Shown here piece by piece: positions 3,966-60,439 of a stretch of DNA of 64,000 bases (position 1 is its first letter; every line of letters starts with the position of its first letter). Location: assembly GCA_013239625.1 (NCBI GenBank), contig MU053158.1, positions 1 to 64,000 on the forward strand, written 5' to 3'. Source of the DNA: Lama guanicoe. Its lineage: Eukaryota. A program made the translations under genes and the position numbers. The notes beneath the pieces are model-generated. The model was given only the letters and a program-made list of their open reading frames with translations, ran no database searches and had not been told where the DNA came from.

Positions 3966-4780
3966 TTTACTACAAATTCTCTTCTCTTTCTCTTTCCCTT
4001 GCCCACTATCTTCCATCATCACCTAAGCTGCACTCATTGTAGTTGGTATGTTTTTCAAGTAGAAAAATGCAAACAAAAGACAGGTAAATGAGATTATGTC
4101 CATGCAAAGAATATCCAGTTTCTCCTTCTTCAATCCAGTTTCTACAAAAAAACTAGAGTGAACTCTGCCCCATTCCCGAGTGTTGGTCAGTGTTGGCAGT
4201 TCCCTAAATCTGCCTCACGCTCTACAGTCTTCCAGAGTCCAGAGGATGGGATGAGGGAAGTTTCTATTGAAATCCAAGGGAGTCCTGTTGGTTGTGGCCT
4301 TGCCAGTACATACAAGATACAAGCAATGAAGGTAAGCTCATTTCTAAAAGGAGGTAAAAGCGCAAAACAAAGATCCAGGCAAACTTAACCAAGGCATTAA
4401 TCCTTTTGCTTTCAATGTATAATAGCATTTCCCAAAAACTGTGGATGGGGGGATTATTGAAAATTATACAGTTTGGTCATAATCGGATGCATTTGACTCT
4501 GCCTTAGTTTAGTGATATTCAATGCCCTTTTTTTTTTTAGGGAGGCGGCGGGAGGCGGGCGGTGGCGGCGGCGGCACCCAGCACGCTGCTGGCATCTCTG
4601 TGCACGAACAACGGCCCGGTTCCCGCCGCGCGGAGTGGGAGCGCGGCGGGCTGCGGGCAGCAGCGGGAGGCATCAGCAGGCGGTGGCGGGAGGCAGTGGT
4701 GGCGGGCAGCGGCGGGAGGCGGGAGACAGCGGTGGGAGGCGGGCGGCAGGCGGGAGGCGGCGGCAGCGGGCGGCGGCGGC

Positions 4781-6170: not shown

Positions 6171-7705
6171 TGTTTCCCCTTTTCTTCCCTTCTTCTGGAG
6201 TGTTTAACCTACAGGTTCTCCATTGTGAATACATAGTAATGTTTTTACTTGATTTACTAATCAGCTAAATACACACAATTTGGCCAATTTACTTCAAAAA
6301 GTTATAAAGGCATTTTTGGAGAATAATTTAGAAAAATGTGATTTTAATTTTTCAAATCACCTCCCAACATTTAGCCAATAATTACTGTGTATTATCAGGA
6401 ATTAAATGAAGTAAAAAGAGCAAAATGATATATATACGTGTGTGTGTGTATATGTATATATTATATATAAAAAACTATTCAACATATGTAATATTACTTA
6501 TTGATATAGCTTATTTTTTAATTAAACAAAAAATTTATGCACTTGAGAGTGAAAAAAATACCACAAGAATTCTTATTGTAGTGTTTTTGTTAGTAGTGAA
6601 AACTTGAAAATTATACACCTACACACACATACAGACAGAGAGAAAAAAATGCATAGGAAGTATTAGGGAGAGGAGGAAACAAGTTTTTCTCATAATATGT
6701 TGAGAATACAATCAATTTTTTGCTGCATTTTTGTTAATAGTTAAAAATGGAAAAACACATAGAAAATACATATAGAAAATAAGTTAAGTTGCTCTTAATA
6801 ACTCTTAATAATGTGTGATAAGACCTCAAACCTTTCAGTAGTCTGAAACATACTGCTTTATTCTCATTAAGATGTCAATTCAGTCAAATATGAACATGAA
6901 CAAAAACTGCTCTTAGAATGGAGAGGTGGGTTCTGGGGGACTTTCCCTTCTATATTATATGTGTTTCTAATGCAAGACTTTGTATTGCATTTGTATTTCA
7001 GTATATATTAATATTATCTATAAGAAAAAATATGATTTTCTGAGGAAAAAGAATTTGAGAGCTTGTCCATTAAGGCAAAATAACCAAGGTAGTTTAACTC
7101 TATACCTCTTAGTTAATCTACTTTATAAAGTTGTGGAAATAATTTGAAATAATGCATGGGAAACCACTCTGCAATGCATAGTGCTATCTCATAATTTGAA
7201 ATCTGAAGATGGATTTGCTTTGAACTATTGATAAGATTATCTTGCCCACCTCTAATTCCAGGTGGAAGACAGTGCAGCAAATGGCTCTGACAGAGATAAG
7301 ACACTGCCTTCTTTAGCAGCCAGGTTTAACTCCTTCAGAACACGTTCTCTTCATCAGTCAGAGGGAAAAATTTCACACTTCAAAAAGAAAAGCTCCAGTA
7401 ATCCAAAAAAGCTCCTGCATATGACTACATTGCTGGATAAGTCCCACGTAATACTGGCTGTCTGCTTCTTTCTTTGTTTAGTCAAATGCATTATTCTCTG
7501 TACGTTAGACACTTACAGATATTCATAGAGATGATCTGGAGGACTGAGGACTGAAGCAAGACAGCCCGGTCCATATAGTTACCTGATTATCATAAAATTA
7601 TCAAAAAAGCGTGGCTAAACCGTGGGGGACTGTGTCAGAGCAGGTTGGCCGATTTACAGTGACTGTTGTTGCCTTCTAGCTTTTCAGCAATGAGCGTGAA
7701 AAACT

Positions 7706-7724
7706 AGGACAGTAGGTGGCAGCT
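7706..7724 (+). promoter_or_regulatory. Candidate CTCF binding motif
   Basis: GGACAGTAGGTGGCAGC: one mismatch to the CTCF core CCASYAGRKGGCRS, in non-repeat DNA. Motif only; no binding data. Confidence 0.45.
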
Positions 7725-8232
7725 TCCTTAACAGCATTTGGCAGATTGCGGCAGTTAGGACCTAATAAAATAAGTACCATATTAGCTGTACTAATATTTG
7801 CTGCCCTTGACCCAAGGAAATTTCCATAATTATTATTGTGTATTTACATCGCCAGATGAAGTCCTGTATTTGCATTGTGGTTTCAAATGCATACTGATTG
7901 TGATTTGATTAGTCATTAGCATACCAAGTATGGAATAGCCAGGCTTTGGAAAGGTTGGAGGCTAGATTTCACTGTCCTCACACTGTGGTGATTCATACCT
8001 TTTTCTAAAAAAATGTACTCATGGTGGCCTCCAGTGTGTACTCGTTTCAGTTTTTCCTTCCCATAAATGACCCTCTAGGTCTAGACAATAAGGTGTCTCA
8101 CATCCAATTTCAAAGAGCAGTGCTAAAACTTTTCTATGTATCTATAAGTTGTCTGTATTTGGGATAAATCTCAATTATGATCAGAAAATCAATTATAACT
8201 TTCTTAGGAGAGTGAAATTTGAGATTCTTTCT

Positions 8233-8395
8233 CTTTTATTTTATTTTATTTATTTATTTACTTTCTTTTGGTGGAGGGAGGAAATTAGGTTGATTTGTTG
8301 ATTTATTTATTTTTAGAGGAGGTACTGGGGACTGAACCCAGGAACTTGTACATGCCAAGCATGCGCCCTACTGCTTGATCTACACTCTACCCACC
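8233..8395 (-). mobile_element. Vic-1-type camelid SINE (tRNA-Ala derived)
   Basis: Reverse complement has a tRNA-Ala-like head, TAAATAAA/cctaatt tail and A-rich end; degenerate TSD tgagattctttct / tgacattcctttct; homologous to 30971-31130. Confidence 0.85.
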
Positions 8396-9150: not shown

Positions 9151-10249
9151 GTATCCCAGGGAAATAAGTTTTCATTCTTTAGGCGTAGCGGTTAGGATAG
9201 AAGTTGGGAAAGGATGCAGAAGAAATTATCTGAAGAAAGTTTTGAAGGCCTCACTGGCATTGAAGTGTCAATTTTCCTCTTGTCTAACCTCCCACCCACG
9301 GCAGCCCTCCTGCCTATAAGGACCATTCAAGCCCTCTTGTAACACTCCTCAGGTTAAGAGAATCTCCAAAACCACTTTATGAGTGTAGTCATGTTTAGGT
9401 CAGCAGGCTTAGATTCAGAGTAAGAACGTGTCACATATGAGAAACCATAAAGGTCAGTGTTCGTGAACTTGAAGGGCAAAGTGGCTGTGTTTGTGGCTGG
9501 TAGAAGTTAAATGACAAGAGTAGAGGAGGTTGTGGGACTGTGAAGTGATCGAATTATGTCTCAGAACCATACACTTCGCGAGAGGCAAGGCGGAGAGTGA
9601 AAATGCAGTTCTGGTGTTGAAATCACTGAGGAAAGAAGGTCTGGGTAGCTCAGTAAATGAGTGTATTAAAAGACAGCAAGGAGCCTTGTGAATGTGAACT
9701 GAAGAAAAGAGGGTGGAATGACTGTGTTCTGGCCACTTGCAGGGGGGAAGGAATGTACAAATGCTTTCCGTATGGATGCCTGGGGAGCACATTAGACAGT
9801 CAAATGTGATCTGTTTGGGGGGAAAGACAAAGAAATGGAAGTGATATGTAAGAAAAAGTCTGAGAATAAATTCCTTGAGCAGGTATATACTGATTAAGTG
9901 TCGATACTGTGCCAGTCCCCTTAGCAGGCACTAGGAGTGTAGAAAGGTTTCCATTCTCAAAATAATAAGCATTCCAAAGGGAACAGTTAAGAAGCAAATA
10001 AAAAACCAGATATAAATCCAAGGAGTTCAATGATAGCAGGACTGTGCTAGTCTGTGATCAAGTAGGAAGACGATGTTGGGGAGGGACAAGTCATCTAAAT
10101 CAGGAAGAGGAAGCAAGCAGTTTGGGAAGTACGATGAGATGGGATGGACAGCTTGCAACACCGAATGAAAGTGTAGAATTTAAAAAACGTAAGAAAAATT
10201 TATCCTAAGCAAAGATTAGTCAGGCTAATTATGATATTTGTGCCTGCTA

Positions 10250-10800
10250 GATATAATCAGAAAATTATTAATTAGCAAATACCCAGAAAAGCACAGGTAT
10301 TCAACCATAACTAAATATGATTTGGGGAAAGTTTATCACCCTGGAACAATTTAATTTCTCCACGACAGTCATGCCTAAGAAAAAGCAAAAAATTTAATAC
10401 ATCTGGATTTTAGTAAGGCCTCTGATACAGATTCATATGCCATTTATCACCAATAAACTCGGAATATTCTGTAAGGTCAACGTGTAACTTCAGGAATCCA
10501 CATTCCCGTAGGTGATGATCAATGATTCTGTGACACCCTAGGCTCACGTATCGAGAGCTGTCCCACTGTGGTCAGTTCTAAGGCCCAGTGCTTTTTATAC
10601 ATTTTATTAATGATTTGGAAGATAGCCTCACCCTCAGCTTAATGAGCACACTGTCTGTTCCCATCCTGGAAGACTGCCAACACTATCAGGCACAAAAATG
10701 GAATTCAAATGTCCCTTGTTAATTGGGAACTGATCTGTCAAAAGTGTGAGTTAAACCATAGGGACACACCCTCTATATTTGGGGGCTGAACACCAGCTAC
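10250..10800 (+). mobile_element. L3/CR1 LINE reverse-transcriptase remnant
   Basis: Frameshifted CR1 RT motifs: LDFSKASD (10403-10426; cf. YLDFSKAFD) and a degenerate GVPQGSVLGPVLF..INDLE block (~10557-10620). Confidence 0.8.
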
Positions 10801-11099
10801 TGGAGTATAAGCATTAACACATAGCGTAGCCCCAAGAGACAATAACTAAAGACAAGGACCTCCTTTATTGACCACTATGAATTACAGTAGAAGTCCAGTC
10901 CAGGCACCCACAATGCCTGCTGTGTCTTAACTGGAGCATGGCTTTTCTCTCATTATAAAGAAGGTATTTTTTATTCTAAATAAATTCTTCATATCCCCTT
11001 TGCAAAGAGTAAGGATTCTAGCAATATTTGTTAAATGAATGAATGACTTGAAAAAAGAAACTTAAGAGACAACACATTATGACTGAAGTAAAATTCACT

Positions 11100-14427: not shown

Positions 14428-15500
14428 AACTAGAAGAAATGAATAAATTTCTGGAAACCTACACCCTACCAACGCTGAATAATGAAAAGATAGAAAATAT
14501 GAATAGACCTGTAACAAGTAAAGTGATTGAATCAGTGATTAAAAAAAAAAATCTACCAACAACCAAGAGCACAGAACCACATGGCTACATTGGTGAACTC
14601 TGCCAAATATTTACAGAGAAATTAATGCCAATAGTTCTCAAATTTCCAAAAGATTTAAATAGAAGGAGTACTTCCAATTTCATTTTATGAAGTCAAGATT
14701 ACCTCAATACCAAAGCCAGACAAGGTTATAACTAGAAAAGAAAATAACAGCCCCAAATCCCTGATAAACATGGGTACAAAAATTTTCAACAAAATATTCA
14801 ATGGCACATTAAAAGGATTGTATACCACGATCAAGTCAGATTTATCCCTGGTATGCAAGGGTGATTCAACATACTGAAATCAATCAGTGTTATGCACCAC
14901 ATTAACAAAATGAAGGACAAAATTTATATGATCATCTCAATAGATACAGAAAAAGCATATGACAAAATTCAACTTCATTTCGTGATTGAAAAAAAAGAGC
15001 TCTCGGCAAACTGGGTATAGAAGGAGCACATCTCAGCAGAGCAAGGCCTGTATGTCAAGCCCACAGCTAGCATCATACTCAGTGATAACGAGCTACAAGC
15101 TCTTCTTCTAACGTCAAGAACACTGCTAGGACACCCACTCTTGCCACTTCTGTTCAATGTAGGACTGGAGTCCTAGCCAAAGCAATTAGATGGGAAAAGA
15201 AAAAAGTTATCTAAATCAGAAAGGAGGGAGTAAAATTGTCTCTGTTTACAAGGTGACATGGTTGTATGTATAGAAATTTCTAAAGATCACACCAAAAAAA
15301 ATGCTAGAATTAATAAATGAATTCTGTAAATTGCAAGATACGAAATTAGCAAACAGTTTCATTTCTACCTGCTAACAATGAGAAATTAGAAAAGGAACCC
15401 CATTTATAATAGCCTCAAAAGCAGTAAGATACTTAGAAGTAAACTTAATCAAGAAGGTGAAAAACTGTATATTGAAAACTGTAAGACATTGATGAAAGAA
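14428..15500 (+). mobile_element. L1 ORF2 fragment (Z region and RT), 3'-truncated
   Basis: [54 protein letters not shown]; degenerate GCPLSPLLFN and LFADDM motifs; stops at KTLMKE. Confidence 0.92.
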
Positions 15501-26944: not shown

Positions 26945-27200
26945 GAGAGGCAGTTCAGCCAAGTGGTTAAGAGCTCGGATTCTGTAGTCGCATTTTTGGC
27001 TTTATCACTTTCTGGCTATGGGATCTTGGGAAACCTAACCTCTTTGTGCCTCAGATTCATCATTTGAATATGAGAACGATAATACTTAAACCTGCCTCAT
27101 AGGCCTGTCGTGTTGCTTAGATCAGGATGATCCCGGTGAAGTGCCTTCCAGGGGAGCACAGCACTCAGTAAGACATCGTATGACTGCCTTGGTTATTACT
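26945..27200 (+). mobile_element. MIR SINE (near full length)
   Basis: agtggttaagagctcggattctg...aacctctttgtgcctcagattcatcatttg...cctgcctcatagg...cactcagtaa. Confidence 0.85.
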
Positions 27201-29489
27201 ACTGCTTTTTTCATTATTACTATCAATAAAACACCCTTCCAAATTATTTACTGTTCATCTGAGCGTTGTTACAGTTTCGCGCATCACTGGGTGTGTCTGT
27301 CTGTATCTTGAGAAGTGTGTCGGTTAGGCTCTTTCAAGTTCCATGGCACAGGAGCACGCTCAGATGAGCAGGGCTTATTTTTACAACGTACAGGAAAGTT
27401 TGGGAAAGCAGAAAGTGGTCTTAGAAGCTCCTCCAGACCTAAAATGTCTTTTCTTACAGTTCCTCATCACCCCTGGCTCTCTTGCTCTGGCTATCACTGT
27501 ACTGATTCAGAAGCATCTCTACTGGTCGTTTCTGCAGGAGCAGCTCTTGCCCGGGCTCTAGGGAAACACTTCTGCCCATTCAATACCCAGCTTCCTCGGC
27601 AGAGCCGGTCACACCTGAACTGCCTCTAACATCAGGGTCAGCAATTTCAACTTAAACTCACTGAGAAAGAAATGCCTTGATGGTTTGGCCACCACAGTCC
27701 AGCATAGTGTGTCCCTTGTACGTGGGGCTCTCCCCTTGGTCACCACATAGACTGCACAGCGGTGATCCTTTGTTAATTAACTATGTAGCCAGCAGAAAGG
27801 GAACAGGACAAGATGAGATCAGTATAGAGGTGCTATTATCCTGAGGCTTCCTGAAGGGATCAGTGTAACTGGTAGAGGCGGTGTGTAGCATCCCCAGCAC
27901 ATCCAGTACATCATGTGTGCCAGGGGCACAGCAAGACTCATTTTTTAACTCATTGGCTTCTCTAGCAGTCACTTTGGCATTTAAAAACACAGTATTTATA
28001 TTGATAATGGACTCCTCGGGGGAAGTCATTGGGCCCTCTCTCTCCATGCCACCCTTCTTTGGGAACTGCTTTCCTTATTTGACCACAGGATGGCAGAGGT
28101 TAGTCTGGGCAGCGATTCTGCACAACGTGCCTTGCTTCTCACTGGGCCAGGCAAGGCCATCAGATTCCTCAAAGGTGATCACTTAGCCCAAGCTACGCTC
28201 AGCTCAGTCCCTAGGAATTTAAAGTCAGGACTGAGAAAGAAAAGTCCGCTGTGGGCGCAACATGCCAACTCAGGATTCGGCAGAAGCCATGGTTGCTTTG
28301 CTTTGTTTTCTTGCATTTCTTGTTAGTTGGTTTTCTGTTTGTTTTTCTGTATTATATGGTCAGGAAACTAGGAGTAAGCTTATCTTTGAGAGAAAGAAAA
28401 CTGAAGCAGACACAGAGAGAGGCATAATGCCTTCCACTTCCTAATCCCACACAGTGCCGAAGAATGAAATTTATACCTACTCTTCAGTTCTGTGAGACGG
28501 TTCAGGATCATTATAGCATATCCTTCACATTGTTAGGCTAGGGCCTATGAGTATCTGTTATTTGAAACATAGAATTCGAATAATCAGCATAAAGATAGCT
28601 AAATGTTTCCTCTAAGGATGTAAACTAGGCACTAAAAATGGCATAGGTTTTATATAAAAATTTCAAAGTAAATTTTGCAACCATTTGTCATGGAAGAAGT
28701 TTGGGGAGGCTTTGAGTATTACCTTTGGGGATGAACATGTTTCATAAAAGAAGTTTGGGGAGGCTTCTTTGGGGACGAACATGTTCTGTGACCTCAGCTA
28801 CACACCTTGTGCTTTTTTGTCTCATCTTTGTTTTAAACTGTTTAGGTCTTACATTTTCTTGCTGACATATAATAAAGAAAATAAATATTTATCTCAGGAT
28901 CTATAATTCACAGAAATACTAATTCTCCTTATTTAAAAATATAGGTATAAAGGTAGACAGTATAAGAGATGGTGCAAGGTTTGTACCAAATTCAGGATAT
29001 ATGTTTAAATACCTGAAGATGAGTAGGTATTACTAAACCCAAGCCTGATGTGAATCTATTTTCTTAAAGTTTGCCTCTTCCTCGAAAGAAATGAAATATA
29101 TACATATATACATAAGTTTTCTATAATTATGGGTCTTAAATATGTTTGCATTCCCCAACACAGACATAGAACTGGCCAGGTAGTAATATTCTTGTCTAAT
29201 TATTACCGTCTGGCCTCAGTCACCCCCAAATCACAATCCTTACAGCCTTTTCTGACTTCCTTTAATAACTGGTTTTAGATACTGGGGGCTTACTTGGGCG
29301 TAAGCTATCCTGGCTGGTTAGATCCAGATAAGCCCTGAAGAACTCCCCAAAAGAATATATATTTCTGAGTGTTCTAATTCCTGAGAATTATCTTTTTCCT
29401 TTGTACGACTCATCTGTTGCCTGGACATATTGTTGGAGGTTAGGGGAAGGATTTTTGGCTTCCCTTCATCCCCCCTTTCTTTTCCCCAA

Positions 29490-30479: not shown

Positions 30480-31170
30480 ATATAAGATAGACTGTGAATC
30501 TAATCCAAAAGAATAGAAAATATGAGACTGCATCAAATGAGAATTATTTCTGTTGTTTTGGGAAAATTGTGTTTACTTGGCCACCATGAAAAACAAAGTT
30601 CTTATTTTGCATCATGGTCAAATATATTGAAAACCACTGTCCTAGGAAAAATCCTGTGTATAACCAGGAGAAAGGTATAAGAATGTTCAGATAGCACTGT
30701 TCCCATTAGAAAAATAACAAGATACATTCCAATGTCTATAAATAGAAGAATGGTAAATAATTTGTGGTATGTCCACATAATGGAATACTGTGCAACAGAG
30801 AGAATTGGTGAATACAGCTAAAAGGAACAACATGGCTAAATCTTAGGGATGATTAACTTAAAGATCATATTTCTGAAGAATATAGTATGATTTGACTAGT
30901 ATACATAAAAAACATGCAAAAGCAAACAAAATATTAAGTACAGGAATACACAGTAAAATTTGAAAAATGTGGGGGGAGGGTGTAGCTCAAAGTGGCAGAG
31001 CGCATGCTTAGCATGCACGAGGTCCTGGGTTCAAACCCCAGTACTTCCTCTAAAAAGTAAATAAATAAATAAACCGAAGTACATCCCTCCCCCCAGAACA
31101 AAATAAATAAATAAAATTTAAATTTAAAAAATATTTTGAAAAATGCAAGAGATGATCAATGCAGATTTTA
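30480..31170 (+). mobile_element. L1ME-type 3' fragment (interrupted by SINE)
   Basis: aatgtctataaatagaagaatggtaaataatttgtggtatgtccacataatggaatactg...aacaacatggctaaatct. Confidence 0.65.
30971..31130 (+). mobile_element. Vic-1-type camelid SINE (tRNA-Ala derived)
   Basis: ggggggagggtgtagctcaaagtggcagagcgcatgcttagcatgcacgaggtcctgggttcaaacccc (A box; B box 31028-31038); (TAAA)n tail; 11-bp TSD tttgaaaaatg (30959-30969, 31135-31145). Confidence 0.9.
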
Positions 31171-39629: not shown

Positions 39630-40377
39630 GAATGTTAAACTGATTCTAAATTTATTAGGATAAAATCAAGACTTATGTAAATTACATGAAGCAGAATGGC
39701 AAATGTTAAGCCAGTCACTGACGTTTCCACTTGCAGAAGAGGAGGGATGAGGGGGTAAGGGAGGACATCTAGCTTGACTCTATGTGGCTGAAAGCCGCTA
39801 AGATAATCGGCAACTTTCCTTTTGTAGTGCCCGGGCTGGGTCTCCAGTAAGTTCATTTAAATCATCCCACACAGTGAAGTTTATCCATTTATAACACACT
39901 TAAATCTGGGAAATCCTCAGCTCCATGGCATGAACAGCAGGTCAACTGAAAATCACATCGGAAATTCAAAATAAACAAGGAAAAGACCAGTCAATCTTAA
40001 GCTTGTTAAGTGCCTTTTTATTGATTGTATTTAATTCCTTCAGCGTGAATCCAAAGGACAAAAACTGGTCCTGTGGCTTTTCCTCTTTCATTATCCCAAA
40101 CAAGAAAGGAAGGATCGGATAGAGAACAGGAACATAAAATAGCTGTTTCTGCAAAAATGATCACCTTCCTCATAGCTTCATAATTTACTCCCAGTCCATA
40201 AGGTCCTCAGTTCCAGTGATTGGGATGATGGATGACTCCACTTCGGCTACAACCGGCGACCGTGCTGCAATGTATCTCTCCGCAGGATGTACAATAGAAC
40301 AAACGAACCAGCAGGATGGAGTGGCACGCGGGAGTGCCGGGGGATTTCTCTTCAGTGGAAGAGTAGATAGTCATTCC
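39630..40377 (-). other. Candidate 3'-terminal exon of an unidentified minus-strand transcript
   Basis: Acceptor tattttacataattccag at 40378; CpG-retaining 5' part; AATAAA at 40017-40022 and 39651-39656 on the minus strand; no recognised repeat inside. Gene not identified. Confidence 0.3.
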
Positions 40378-41330
40378 CTGGAATTATGTAAAATACAGCT
40401 TGTAAATATTGCTCCCATTGTGGACACGTGCATGTGCAACTTGACAGAAAAGGGCAACACTGGCATAAAAGAATGCAAAAATATTTTCCACTTCAGTGCC
40501 CGTGTGTTTTCACATGGCCAGATTTTGCATTAAACAAAGCTCCCGCTCCATGCTTAGTGAATTGTTAAGAAGGTAAATATATATATATATATTTGAGGAC
40601 AGAGGGAAACGACTTACGGTTTTATCATTGATACTTAGTTTATTCCGAAGCTTGTAATTCAATATTAAAATAATGCTAAACTGCTTGATAATACTTGCTT
40701 AGATCATATTTTTAGGATCACCTCCGTATCTCTTTATAAGTCAATACTATATTTTAACTGAAAAAATTAGGATGTGAAACAATAACCAGCAAATTAACAA
40801 AAGAGACTTGAATTTCCAGACTATCCAGGCGGATGTGTTTACGTCCATCCTTGTGCTGTGCAGCTTGCACAGGAATCAAAACTTCTAACTAACCATACTT
40901 CCCACATTCTTCCACAATCTAACAGAATCTAAAACAGAATGAGGCTAAATGTTTATGTTCTGAAAGGACTTCAAGAGCTAAGACCTCTCATCAGCAAGGA
41001 ATAAGAGTGATTGTTAGCAGTTTGTCCGAGTTGCTAGCAACTAGCAAGAAAAACTCCTTGGCCAGCTCTTACAGTCAACTTCCAAATTGCTTTTGCCAGA
41101 TTCTTCTTTGTCTTTTTCATTTGAAAACTTCTGTTCCACAGGCGGCTGTTTGGCAGTGTGTCATTTGTTTTTAATTTTTATGCAAGTAACCTTCTCTTCT
41201 ACCTCCATACTAGCAGTGCTGGGGCAAAAATGAAGTCAAACTCATAAAAAGTAGCGTACCAGAATTCCAGGTACCCAGCTCCATACAGTCCTGCCACATT
41301 TCATTTATCTAACCAATAAGTATAAAATAG

Positions 41331-45319: not shown

Positions 45320-46400
45320 TTGTTATCTTCTGTTGCTCAACAAACTACCCTAACATTTAATGGCTTAAAATCAGTACTGTTTTTATTTGCTCAAGATTCT
45401 GTGGGTCGGGAATTCAGGAAGTAGCTGTACTTGACCAGGCAGGTTTTATTTTTCTATTTCTTATGGCATTTCCTAGGATTACTCATTTGACTGCGTCCAG
45501 CTGGGTTATCAGCTATAGATTCAGTTCCACGGGGGCGAGCAGGAACTGGAATTGTAATAGGGAAGAACAAATCTGACTCCATTTTAGATCTGTTCTTCTA
45601 GTTCTAACCCTGGGCTCTGTTTCCTGGGCTTAGTCATGCTGATTCTGCACCTTTTGTAAAAGAATGTTGCCTAGAGCCTGAAATATACAGGACATAGCCT
45701 GAAATATACAAGATAGCCCATCCTCAAGGGTATAAAACTTTTCCATTCATGTGGAGATAAAAAGCTGCAGAATGAAGAATAACATTTGCCTGGTGGGAGG
45801 TTTGCAGGAACATTATGACCTAAACTACACAGAATTCTGCAAGAACTGAGGATTCTGACACCAAGGAGTTTGCAACAACTAAACACACCCCCTCCCCTTT
45901 TTAGTATAAAAGGAGTCTTAATTTTGACATGGGGAAGATGGTTCTCCAAGACATTAGTCTGCCATCCTCTGGGTCTGCTGGCTTTCTGAATGAAGTTATT
46001 ATTCCTTGCCCCAACACTTTATCTCCCAATTAATTGGCCTGTTGTGTGGCGAACAGAACAAATCTGGACTTAGTAACAGAATGTCCAGGTGGATTTATTT
46101 ACCTGTATGGTATCTCAGCTGGGGGCTGCCTGGATATATATCTCTTTCTCTCTCCATGTCATCTTTCCAGTATAAAAGTTTTTGCCTGGCAGATAAGGAC
46201 TTCAAGAGAGGAACTGGTGGCTGCACATCAGGCTTGGCCTCAGCGGTTACAGTAGCATTTCCACCACATTCTATTGGTCAAAGCCAGTTCACTACTCATC
46301 TAGACTCAAGGGATGGAGAAAATAGACTCAAGCTTGATGTGGGAGCAGAAAGGGAGCTACTACTGTGGCCCTCTTTAGAAACACAATCTAATTCAGTTTA
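45320..46400 (-). mobile_element. MaLR LTR (MLT1H-like), split by the MER41-like LTR
   Basis: caacaaactaccctaacatttaatggcttaaaa..gattctgtgggtcgggaattc on the left; ttccaccacattctattggtcaaagc..gactcaaggg on the right. Confidence 0.75.
45553..46078 (+). mobile_element. ERV1 solo LTR (MER41-like, cetartiodactyl type)
   Basis: TGTAATAGGGAAGAACAAATCTGACTCCAT...GTAACA; perfect TSD GAAT (45549-45552, 46079-46082); TATAAAA near 45905; short internal duplication agcctgaaatataca (45675, 45696). Confidence 0.9.
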
Positions 46401-52835: not shown

Positions 52836-53228
52836 TAACTGATACTATATGGTAGTGTATTTTCTTACAGAATTCTCACTAGTAGGCTAACCTATTGCCT
52901 TCTTCATCAAAATTCCCTGACAGTATATTTGTTTTTGGATGAGTAAAAACAGTAATCTAATATTTCCCAAATACACAAATGAGTATTGCTGTAGGATCTA
53001 TCTTCACTGGACTCTAAAATTTCTATATAGTAACTGATACTATATGGTAGTGTATTTTCTTACAGAATTCTCATTAGTAGGCTAACCTATTATTGCCTTC
53101 TTCATCAAAATTCCCTGACAGTATATTTGTTTTTGGATGAGTAAAAACAGTAATCTAATATTTCCCAAATACACAAATGAGTATTGCCTTAGGATCTATC
53201 TTCACTGGACTCTAAAAATTCTATATAA
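52836..53228 (+). repeat. Head-to-tail duplication of a ~195-bp unique segment
   Basis: Copy 1 at 52836-53030 and copy 2 at 53031-53228 differ by about 5 substitutions and a 3-bp (TAT) indel. Confidence 0.95.
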
Positions 53229-56915: not shown

Positions 56916-57909
56916 AAAGGCTGCATATGCATACCCAATCAGTGTTTAAAACAGTCCATCCTACAACCCACAGACACCTTCCATGACAATTTTATTGTGC
57001 TTTTGCTAAAGAGGGACATAATCTCCTCAGAAACAAACAGAAAGCTGGTTTCATTAAATCCATTCTTCTTAATGTCAGAAACCCTTATTTCTTCTCTCAA
57101 AATCTGCGATATTGCCTGGATCATGAAAAAATATGAAAGCAAACTAGAGTAGTCAAACTGTTTACAAAAAATGTTATTAATGATACAATCCATCTACATA
57201 GATGTGAACATATTTTAATAACCTTGGATCTGACAGGAAGAGTTGTGATGTAAAAGGAGATTTACATGCATAAAAGCTCAGGGAAAAAGTTTGAACTTCA
57301 AGCATTAAGGTCTTAGTTCGTAAATCCGAAGGGAAATACATAGAAAATAAAGGCATTAGAAGAAGATATGAAAAAATGTAAAAGAATTAATGTCTCCTCC
57401 ATGAATCTTTGTGAATAAATGGCAACACACAAGCTACAGAAAACCAGTTTACTGTTTGAAGGATGAATGTGGGTTCAGAAGAATCAACATGGAATTTTCA
57501 AGTTAATGGAAAACAAGCTCATATTGTTTATGTAATGATTGATACTATCCTGGTTGAATTAAAAGGGATTCTAGAACATACCTCTCCCTACTGAAACACA
57601 TTTTGCTGCTTTAAAAATGCAAGGTGTTTGAGAATGGCTTAGAAAGATTATCAACTACATACTAGTAAATCACAAACTCTTAACCCAAAATCAAATTAAA
57701 ACCTATTTTTGCAGAGTTTATTAAAAAGCATTTGTTCTTTTGCTCTACATGTCTGTGGCTAAAATTTAAATCATATTAATCTTGAAACGTGTTTTAGATG
57801 TAAACTAAATCTAATACATACAAAGTCCTTATTTTCCTATTTAATTAAAAGAAATTCCAAAAGACTACTTTCTTTTCAGAGAGAAACTTGTTGAAATAAT
57901 TACCTATTG

Positions 57910-58190
57910 AGGACTAGAAATCCCAAGGGATTAGCTTTGGATACAGAGCTTTCAAGTTTCTAGGTCACTGAATGGAATCTGAAACCAAACCCACAGGGAC
58001 TAAAGGGCATTATCAGGAAAGGCTGTTAAAGGACCTTTATCATATGGTCTCAGTGAGAGACAGGTGTCCACTGTTGTTGACCATCTGGGTTAAGAAGCAA
58101 AAACATAAAAGGGTATGATTGCCCCTAAAAATGATCTCCAGAGATTCGGTTTAGGCAAAACATTGAGGGCGGACAAGTCCGTGCACAATG
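57910..58190 (+). mobile_element. LF-SINE (LFSINE_Vert) remnant
   Basis: Collinear matches to the recalled LF-SINE consensus: ggatacagagc, tctaggtcactg, ggctgtt, tggtctcagt, gacaggtgtccac, ttgttg, cccctaaa..ctccag, aggc..acattg..gggc. Confidence 0.7.
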
Positions 58191-60439
58191 ACTTAACATA
58201 ATACTTCTCTCTCTCTGTCTCTCTTCATACATACACACACACACGCATTCTGCATAAGCTCCACAAAAAGGTATTTATTCAGAAGATGCTTCAGGGAGAT
58301 GGGGGAATTATCTCTGTGCTTTGGAAAGGAAAAAAACAAATTTTCCTCAAGTGGTATTAAGATTTAGATCAATAGAAAAGGGTGATTGATTATATAGAAG
58401 ACTTACATATAAAAAAGAAAAAAATATGTTCATTAATTACACAGGTTTTAAAATTATGAAGACAAATACAAAACTTATTGCAAAATAGTTTCAAATTGCA
58501 CTGTTTCGTAAGCTGATTTTGCTCAGGTTGAGGAAATTTTGACTCAAGATGGGTCTTTAAAAGCTTTGGTGGGTAGAGAAGAAGGTTATATAATGTCGGA
58601 TTGGAGAGGGTGGTAGAACACTAAGCCAAGTACAAAATGAAGGATGAAATGGAATCAAATACGTTTCATTTATTACTATAAAAATTGTTTTCATGATCAG
58701 GAGTGAAATTGAATCTTTGCGTTTATTATTGAGTGTGAATATCGATGAAGGTCATATAGCAATATTGGGAAGCAGAGTAATGGCTACAACTCTCTCCATC
58801 TCACCAAAAGAAGGAGCAAATCCAGTGCACAGTCTCTCTTGCTTATTCTGGCCACAACCAGTATGGAGACTTGTGTCTGGTATTCAAATCATCTTTCTAC
58901 GTAGCATACTAATTTTAGCTAAGCTCCTTCTTTGAAAAAAATGTGCTTTAAAAAAAAAATTAGAGCCGCTATACAAAGAGTTGAGAGTGAGATGGGGAAA
59001 GAGAGCCTGTGGTTGATGAAATGCAAATGAGGCTTGGCTCAGACAGCTGGCTGCTTTGGATGACATGGGTGATAAATGGTTCTTAAAACATGAGCAGGCG
59101 TCGGGCTCCCGATTCAGTGTCGGACTGGCAGAAACAGCAGTATTACTAGATGCTTCCTTTAATTAATGCAACTCGACTGCATTAGTCCGGACACTGCCGA
59201 TAAATGGGAAAGAAGTGATATCGAAGGTAATATCAGAAATCTTTCAACCTTGAAGCTGGGATGTGTTGGCCAAAAGCCTCAGGATTGTAAGAGGTTTAAT
59301 TGTATTTGTAATGTACCAGTGCACCATGACAAAAACGGGGAGATAGTGTAGTCAGGACCAGGCAAGGCTGTGATAAATGGGAGAACGAGTGATTACACGG
59401 CAAGGAGGACTGTGGAAACAGACAAAGGACAGGCAAATGGAAAGCGGGAATGTAGCCACCACTGTAATTTGAAAGCACTCAGAGGAATTTTGAGGTGCAC
59501 AGAAGGGTAGGATTTGGTCCTTCAGGATTTGTTAGGGCTCAAGGATGCACAAAATACCTAATATTTCAGTGTGCCCCTAAATATGGTCAGGCAGCATATA
59601 CCTTGTAACACTGTGTAGACTTTAACCTATACCCAAATATAAATGTATGTGCTGCTGGGACGGTGTCTGAGAAATACCTTTAAAAAATACACATACACAT
59701 GCACAAGATGTTTTAAAGAAAACACACCTGGACCTGGCTGCCTACCAAGAGTGTCCTTTTTCTCCTGGCTCAAATTTCTACCTAGAAATCAAATAAAATC
59801 TTTCAGATGACACCAATATTGTCAAGGTGTCGCATCAAAGTAAGATTTTATTCAAGAAGGTATGCCAGTAAGGAATTTTCTGCAACAAGCAAATGACAGA
59901 AGAGTTGGCCTTAAATCTCACAGCGGACACCAGTGAGAATTCCCTGAAATCATACCTCCTTTCACACTTTGTTAACTTGGATCATGACAACCTCAGCCAC
60001 AGCACCAACCACACCTACACGCTGCCCTTTCTCGACACCCCGGCTGTACTTTCCTACTCTGATCCTGGATCTTCCAGTCTTGACCTCCTATCGCACTTTA
60101 GAGCAATGAAACTTTATTTATGAAAACAAGCAGTGAGCTAGTTTGGCCCATGGGCTATAATTTGCCAATTCCTGATAGAATATTGCATCTCTCCATGGTT
60201 ACTTTAAGTACAGAGGTTAGTCTGGTCAGTATTCACACCTCTGCAAGCACTGCTTACAAAGGGAGTGGAAGAGCCAGTCGGGAATAGCTCCTCTTGACGT
60301 GTGTCACTATGTTGTATTTGGGACAGTACTTTTTCTTCCTTTTGGTTCTCATCTTTTGCCCTAGACTAAAAGAAGTCACTAAGAACTGTTTTAGATGGAA
60401 AAATTAATTGTCACCTAAACCCAGTCCTTCCAACCTCTT

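Follow-up and report, generated by a model that had tools for sequence, protein, structure and literature searches.

The retroposon family LF-SINE, or LFSINE_Vert, was reportedly described by Bejerano et al. in 2006. The family, which is covered in PMC4255032, PMC5063351 and PMC5753468, is of tRNA type, has a length of about 481 bp and goes back to the ancestor of lobe-finned vertebrates. An enrichment of Lhx2 and Sox2 on its copies is reported in PMC10257727 and PMC13063735. PMC3649676 reports an Isl1 enhancer derived from LF-SINE, together with over 200 human copies that are conserved and non-coding, and the ultraconserved uc.338 is an LF-SINE copy exonised in PCBP2, with uc.338-linked sequences supplied by PMC5993207 and PMC6961840. 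According to a preprint (bioRxiv 10.1101/2025.03.14.643233), faint LF-SINE relics in human are about 100 times more numerous than previously known. In dromedary genes, LFSINE_Vert is annotated in at least 32 rows of a table in PMC6675863; copies measure 81-355 bp among 30 of these at least 32 rows, and they occur in all kinds of genes, housekeeping genes included, with MRPS33, LARS, TOP2A and SOD2 among the rows listed.

In this study, we analysed a candidate member of this family in a 64,000-nucleotide stretch of Lama guanicoe DNA (contig MU053158.1, positions 1 to 64,000; hereafter the window), which is AT-rich and mammalian in character, with a CpG observed/expected ratio of 0.226. A preliminary description had proposed an LF-SINE relic on the basis of ordered sequence blocks separated by internal deletions. 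The eight blocks are borne out: all were located at the positions given for them and in the same order, within 57939-58165, in non-coding camelid-type DNA (Table 1). The interval is also a compositional unit, having a GC fraction of 0.43 as compared with 0.27 and 0.30 in its flanks and a sharp step at 57901. This contrast is equalled in 4 of 1201 window tiles, a count that includes the interval's own tile and that depends on a tile geometry picked post hoc, after inspection of the profile. A search with nhmmer revealed no second copy of the element within the window. The share of the words contained in sequencing runs was 0.88-1.0 for 14 DNA or unlabelled runs and 0.08-0.28 for 6 RNA runs; these word contents are evidence neither of expression nor of conservation.

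Table 1. Features in and beside the candidate element (window coordinates)
Feature	Position	Strand	Remarks
Probable LF-SINE relic	57908..58190	+	Blocks, GC island and uc.338-linked matches; 5' end kept, internal deletions, 3' end lost; edges approximate
Presumed tRNA-derived head	57910..57990	+	Decayed A and B boxes of the Pol III promoter
Blocks	57939-57953, 57959-57970, 58021-58027, 58045-58054	+	Located in sequence
Blocks, continued	58059-58071, 58122-58129, 58136-58141, 58160-58165	+	Located in sequence
Two body blocks	58045..58071	+	9-nt exact match to TUC338-15; CAGGTG E-box at 58061; both blocks also in L001
48-codon ORF	57972..58112	+	Chance frame, no Pfam family, not thought to be a gene; led to P0003
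Best-kept stretch versus P0003	58068..58097	+	10 identical codons; includes RCCATCTGK site and minus-strand acceptor
Antisense frame PSM-F-CLN	58149..58169	-	Core of uc.338-linked published peptide plus one inserted residue
Possible 181-nt pseudo-exon	57904..58084	-	Donor at 57903 and acceptor at 58084; each of the three frames has stops
TC/CA microsatellite	58206..58247	+	Immediately beyond the 3' edge of the relic; repeat family D7

The LF-SINE consensus that we presume agrees with the one behind the preliminary description, which we take to be a lead and not an independent test. From this presumed consensus we placed the edges and the internal deletions, and the part that would match it best is the presumed tRNA-derived head, about three quarters identical over about 60 bases. 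The stretch is very likely an LF-SINE relic, an identity to which published pieces of uc.338 give independent, if modest, support. These pieces come from the 18 uc.338 tiling probes and the primers in a supplement of PMC5993207, and from a 32-residue human peptide in a passage of PMC6961840 that leaves PCBP2 unnamed; the peptide includes, as judged by eye, the translation of the uc.338 forward primer. The antisense frame PSM-F-CLN, read from 58169 to 58149, is the sole match to the PSMCLN core of that peptide among the 125,887 six-frame residues of the window, with a rough p of 0.001-0.004 for the interval and strand and 0.5-1.7 matches expected window-wide. For probe TUC338-15, chosen by eye as the best of the 18 published probes, which has a 9-nt exact match at 58063-58071, the score in the interval is 18, as against 63 of 5000 shuffles that reach it within the interval; window-wide the interval is not the top match, and 104 of 150 shuffled probes equal or beat the probe's best score. 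The peptide-like motif lies antisense, as in uc.338, and 3' of this probe match. Taken jointly in the expected orientation and order, the two pieces have a rough p of 1e-4 to 4e-4 within the interval, rising to 0.05-0.19 window-wide, values that are corrected for the nine probes overlapping LF-SINE and approximately for the post hoc choice of the motif. An equally long, 9-nt match of probe 18 lies at 58080-58088, out of order by eye.

It is improbable, in our judgement, that the resemblance arose by chance in an ordinary GC-richer patch or that the relic belongs to some other ancient repeat, although the profile searches speak for such a reading. No Rfam family matched the element at E ≤ 10, uc_338 included, the presence of the uc_338 family in Rfam being stated by a 2014 paper. 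Likewise, a tRNA model built from 19 phage T5 tRNAs found no match in the element head (best E 1.3). The same model recovers the heads of the window's two young SINEs at E values of 8e-8 and 0.09, and it therefore has little power on an ancient head. In pairwise comparison, the head ranks within the top 31 of 1396 tiles for 4 of 25 tRNA-type sequences (best rank 5 of 1396), which is not significant after 25 tests. The window-wide values of the published-sequence matches also suit a chance resemblance, and what support remains beyond them is the presumed consensus, common to two like readers; a motif search of paper text did not yield the consensus sequence itself, nor did the supplementary files of PMC4255032 and PMC5786205. 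Against this, the interval and strand were fixed before the uc.338 comparisons, the order and orientation of two separate pieces are consistent, and the published probes are, by eye, collinear with the presumed consensus. In addition, a pattern made from the two middle blocks matched a single metagenome locus, L001, where 0.05-0.5 chance matches were expected, and the contig is vertebrate-like, with a CpG observed/expected ratio of 0.225; the pattern had no match in viral and prokaryote contigs, and blastn against plasmids gave three chance matches at E 1. At positions 680-740 of L001, both middle blocks are followed by sequence resembling probe 15. The similarity of L001 to the relic is limited to the search pattern (455 of 2000 and 141 of 2000 shuffles were as good) and L001 has no match in Rfam, but this locus is probably another short LF-SINE relic.

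The relic cannot transpose, for the A and B boxes, 3' tail and target-site duplication of a competent SINE are missing from it. No Pol III A- or B-box pattern occurs in the interval at up to one mismatch, and no target-site duplication flanks the element edges, the one 7-mer falling inside a SINE-like block. RNA folding is unremarkable (z -1.45 for the head, and -0.89). Nor is the relic a coding exon of the PCBP2 type, because its antisense frame stops 7 codons past the shared motif; an in-frame antisense exon was ruled out on this ground and on the lack of an upstream acceptor above 1.1 bits. Searches of PDB and Atlas with the antisense frame returned nothing, and a pentaxin match at E 0.0076, in a stop-ridden frame and below the cut-off, was dismissed as chance. 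The relic would accordingly be neither Pol III-transcribed nor coding.

A view of how the relic has changed was provided by the 48-codon ORF, with which phmmer retrieved three matches among 1.84 billion proteins. Two of them, P0002 and P0004, are repeat-rich and were rejected as artefacts. The third, P0003 (E 1.4e-5), is a singleton hypothetical protein translated from a metagenome ORF on a 16-kb JGI/IMG contig, and it aligns with 57972-58112 at 27 of 47 identical residues with no gaps. Because the alignment is gap-free and has the same short block spacing, P0003 probably stems from host DNA, namely from the locus orthologous to the relic in another mammal. The short spacing between the two body blocks would then be common to another animal, and the change in spacing therefore old. 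DNA for P0003 was not found, with three weak viral loci among 28 candidates and none among 492 prokaryote candidates. A word-index protein search gave no candidate for the ORF, P0003 included, and is therefore lossy for this query.

The preliminary description had reasoned that so old a copy should not stay recognisable unless it is constrained, and that it may mark an enhancer of a nearby developmental or neural gene. The first of these claims finds no support in the comparison with P0003. Neutral simulation on window codons, in which protein letters alone were compared, puts the two at about 0.25-0.35 substitutions per site; distances (d) of 0.15 or less are rejected, since 27 or fewer identities have a probability of 0.008 at d = 0.15, which falls to 0 at d = 0.1, and so are distances of 0.5 or more (P ≤ 0.013). 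Under neutrality, camelids differ from other laurasiatherians and from primates by about 0.2-0.35 substitutions per site, and from rodents by about 0.6. The rate of the relic would thus be near neutral if the host of P0003 is any of most placentals and about half neutral if it is a rodent, and since d ≥ 0.5 is rejected, a rodent or marsupial host would imply real constraint. The SINE-like blocks are kept no better than the remaining aligned codons, with 6 of 10 and 1 of 3 codons identical over these blocks versus 10 of 14 downstream, and P0003 is altered at the 58021 block and at the CAGGTG E-box (Cys to Arg at 58065). On the other hand, the run of 10 identical codons (704 of 20,000 permutations, p 0.035) and the lack of any indel in 141 aligned bases lean towards constraint, although the search that found P0003 itself favours gap-free alignments and identical runs. 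If the copy is more than 300 million years old, the identity of 68-75% over 160 columns, which we take from the presumed consensus, would lie 3-7 standard deviations above neutral decay at d 0.7-0.9. Overall, the counterpart in P0003 appears too diverged to indicate a strongly preserved gene switch, and strong ongoing constraint on the relic is somewhat disfavoured.

These observations are best accommodated by a decayed LF-SINE fossil under weak or patchy constraint, possibly with one bHLH site kept near 58080, an explanation on which our confidence is evenly balanced. Under this explanation, an old retrocopy would have been inserted here long before placental mammals; the RNA polymerase III promoter and the 3' part of this copy would since have disappeared, and internal deletions would have arisen in it. 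Its legibility is probably owed to constraint earlier in its history, and most of it may now be changing near the neutral rate. Any residual function might reside in a small site of about 30 bp where a transcription factor docks, centred on the sequence RCCATCTGK at 58080-58088, which we take to be a bHLH-type E-box; this sequence occurs 5 times in the window, with 0.022 occurrences expected per 281 bp.

A more active role, that of an exapted enhancer of the Isl1 type, still constrained and acting on a remote gene beyond the window through bHLH, SOX and homeodomain sites, is possible but doubtful. Published precedent favours it, namely the Isl1 enhancer with the conserved human copies and the Lhx2 and Sox2 binding outlined above, as do predicted binding sites within the element or next to it (CAGATG at 58087, CAGGTG at 58061, SOX at 58185 and TAATTA at 57897) and the gap-free probable orthologue with its run of identical codons. 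However, SOX and TAATTA sites are at chance level, about 0.5 being expected per 310 bp, the E-box at 58061 is among the positions changed in P0003, for which d ≤ 0.15 is rejected, and the copy has large internal deletions relative to what we presume to be the consensus. In addition, no gene was identified in the window: none of 442 stop-to-stop frames of at least 48 aa reaches the Pfam cut-off, a search that short exons could escape, and the best match is a scrap of L1 reverse transcriptase at 14865-15017, below the cut-off. As no frame reaches the cut-off, the relic is intergenic or deep intronic, which leaves it without a nameable target gene. The claim of a nearby developmental or neural target is therefore not sustained, no coding exon having been detected in 64 kb and the dromedary copies being spread over all kinds of genes.

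A further point raised for the enhancer reading is a CpG-retaining, non-repeat patch about 0.8 kb downstream, at 58900-59400. It has an observed/expected ratio of 0.55-0.71, and its CpG count is the third highest among all 300-bp tiles. The octamer ATGCAAAT occurs in it at 59021, and an inverted repeat, imperfect in its pairing, at about 59114-59196 (fold z -0.12). By its sequence, this patch resembles a regulatory element under conservation, and as an enhancer candidate it may surpass the relic. Further CpG-retaining patches, at 40000-40600, 27000-27400 and 7400-7800 (observed/expected 0.5-0.6, with no frame at the Pfam cut-off), are possible conserved non-coding elements.

The same element was also considered as an exonised copy, in which 58084-57904 would form a 181-nt, frame-breaking antisense cassette of a minus-strand transcript, as a poison or non-coding exon. 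Its acceptor is within the top 134 of 8337 AG and its donor within the top 241 of 6380 GT dinucleotides of the window, as scored with approximate splice frequencies; the donor coincides with the 5' edge of the element, and the best-kept run versus P0003 spans the acceptor. Yet 48 acceptor-donor pairs in the window score equally, 23 of 440 intervals contain one, no host gene was found in the window, and the uc.338-like part lies outside the 181-nt exon, which makes this reading very unlikely. Slighter still are the prospects of its extended form, according to which the 5' half of the LF-SINE, exonised antisense from 58084 to 57904, would tune a minus-strand gene via nonsense-mediated decay, with constraint limited to the acceptor; here the acceptor would have newly arisen where the SINE middle was deleted, unlike the use of the 3' half in PCBP2.

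Several other features of the window deserve mention. Two short tRNA-Ala-like SINE heads lie at 8314-8385 on the minus strand and at 30976-31052 on the plus strand, presumably similar to the camelid vic-1 SINE. ARAGORN and Rfam both report the head at 30976-31052 as a tRNA; it would likely appear as a false tRNA gene in annotation, and it is the only Rfam match across the window. The vic-1 name is used in PMC3531059. A decayed LINE-like stretch at 10150-11000 has no Pfam match. One of its frames contains LDFSKA, which we take to be typical of CR1/L3 reverse transcriptase. An LTR-like repeat of 500 bp, presumably MER41-like, is present in two oppositely oriented copies (2452-2960 and 45553-46070) that are 78-92% alike by block. 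At 4540-4780 there is a GGC-rich, CpG-rich low-complexity insert, preceded by a poly-T run and ending at an assembly gap, which may derive from an mRNA retrocopy, as its 5' end. Lastly, a 198-bp tandem duplication at 52836-53227, 96% identical and located shortly upstream of a 932-base gap, may be an assembly artefact.

The relic described here probably adds a new copy to a well-known family and may well already be present in standard repeat annotation. As it stands it carries little weight, LF-SINE relics having been described in many mammalian copies, but it serves as a caution that an ancient copy can be legible without acting as an enhancer under strong present-day constraint. Its importance would rise if 58068-58097 were functional, as a bHLH site or as a splice acceptor, and had arisen inside a decaying element.

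Compared with the described systems, the relic shares with the Isl1 LF-SINE enhancer a non-coding nature and a setting in which no coding exons were detected. That enhancer, however, was examined in transgenic mice and is reported in PMC3649676 as probably active in all tetrapods, whereas the relic differs from P0003, its one probable orthologue, by 0.25-0.35 substitutions per site. In contrast to the uc.338/PCBP2 exon, the relic is not ultraconserved, has neither an Rfam match nor a host gene in the window, and has an antisense frame that ends 7 codons past the motif, with a best upstream minus-strand acceptor of 1.1 bits; nevertheless, it has the PSMCLN core in common with that exon, apart from a single extra residue, as well as the 9-nt match to probe 15. 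With respect to LFSINE_Vert as a family, the relic covers about 280 of 481 bp, has internal deletions, and is without an A or B box, a detectable tRNA fold or an edge target-site duplication, but it has the ordered blocks, the uc.338-like pieces oriented as expected, and a length inside the 81-355 bp range of the dromedary copies.
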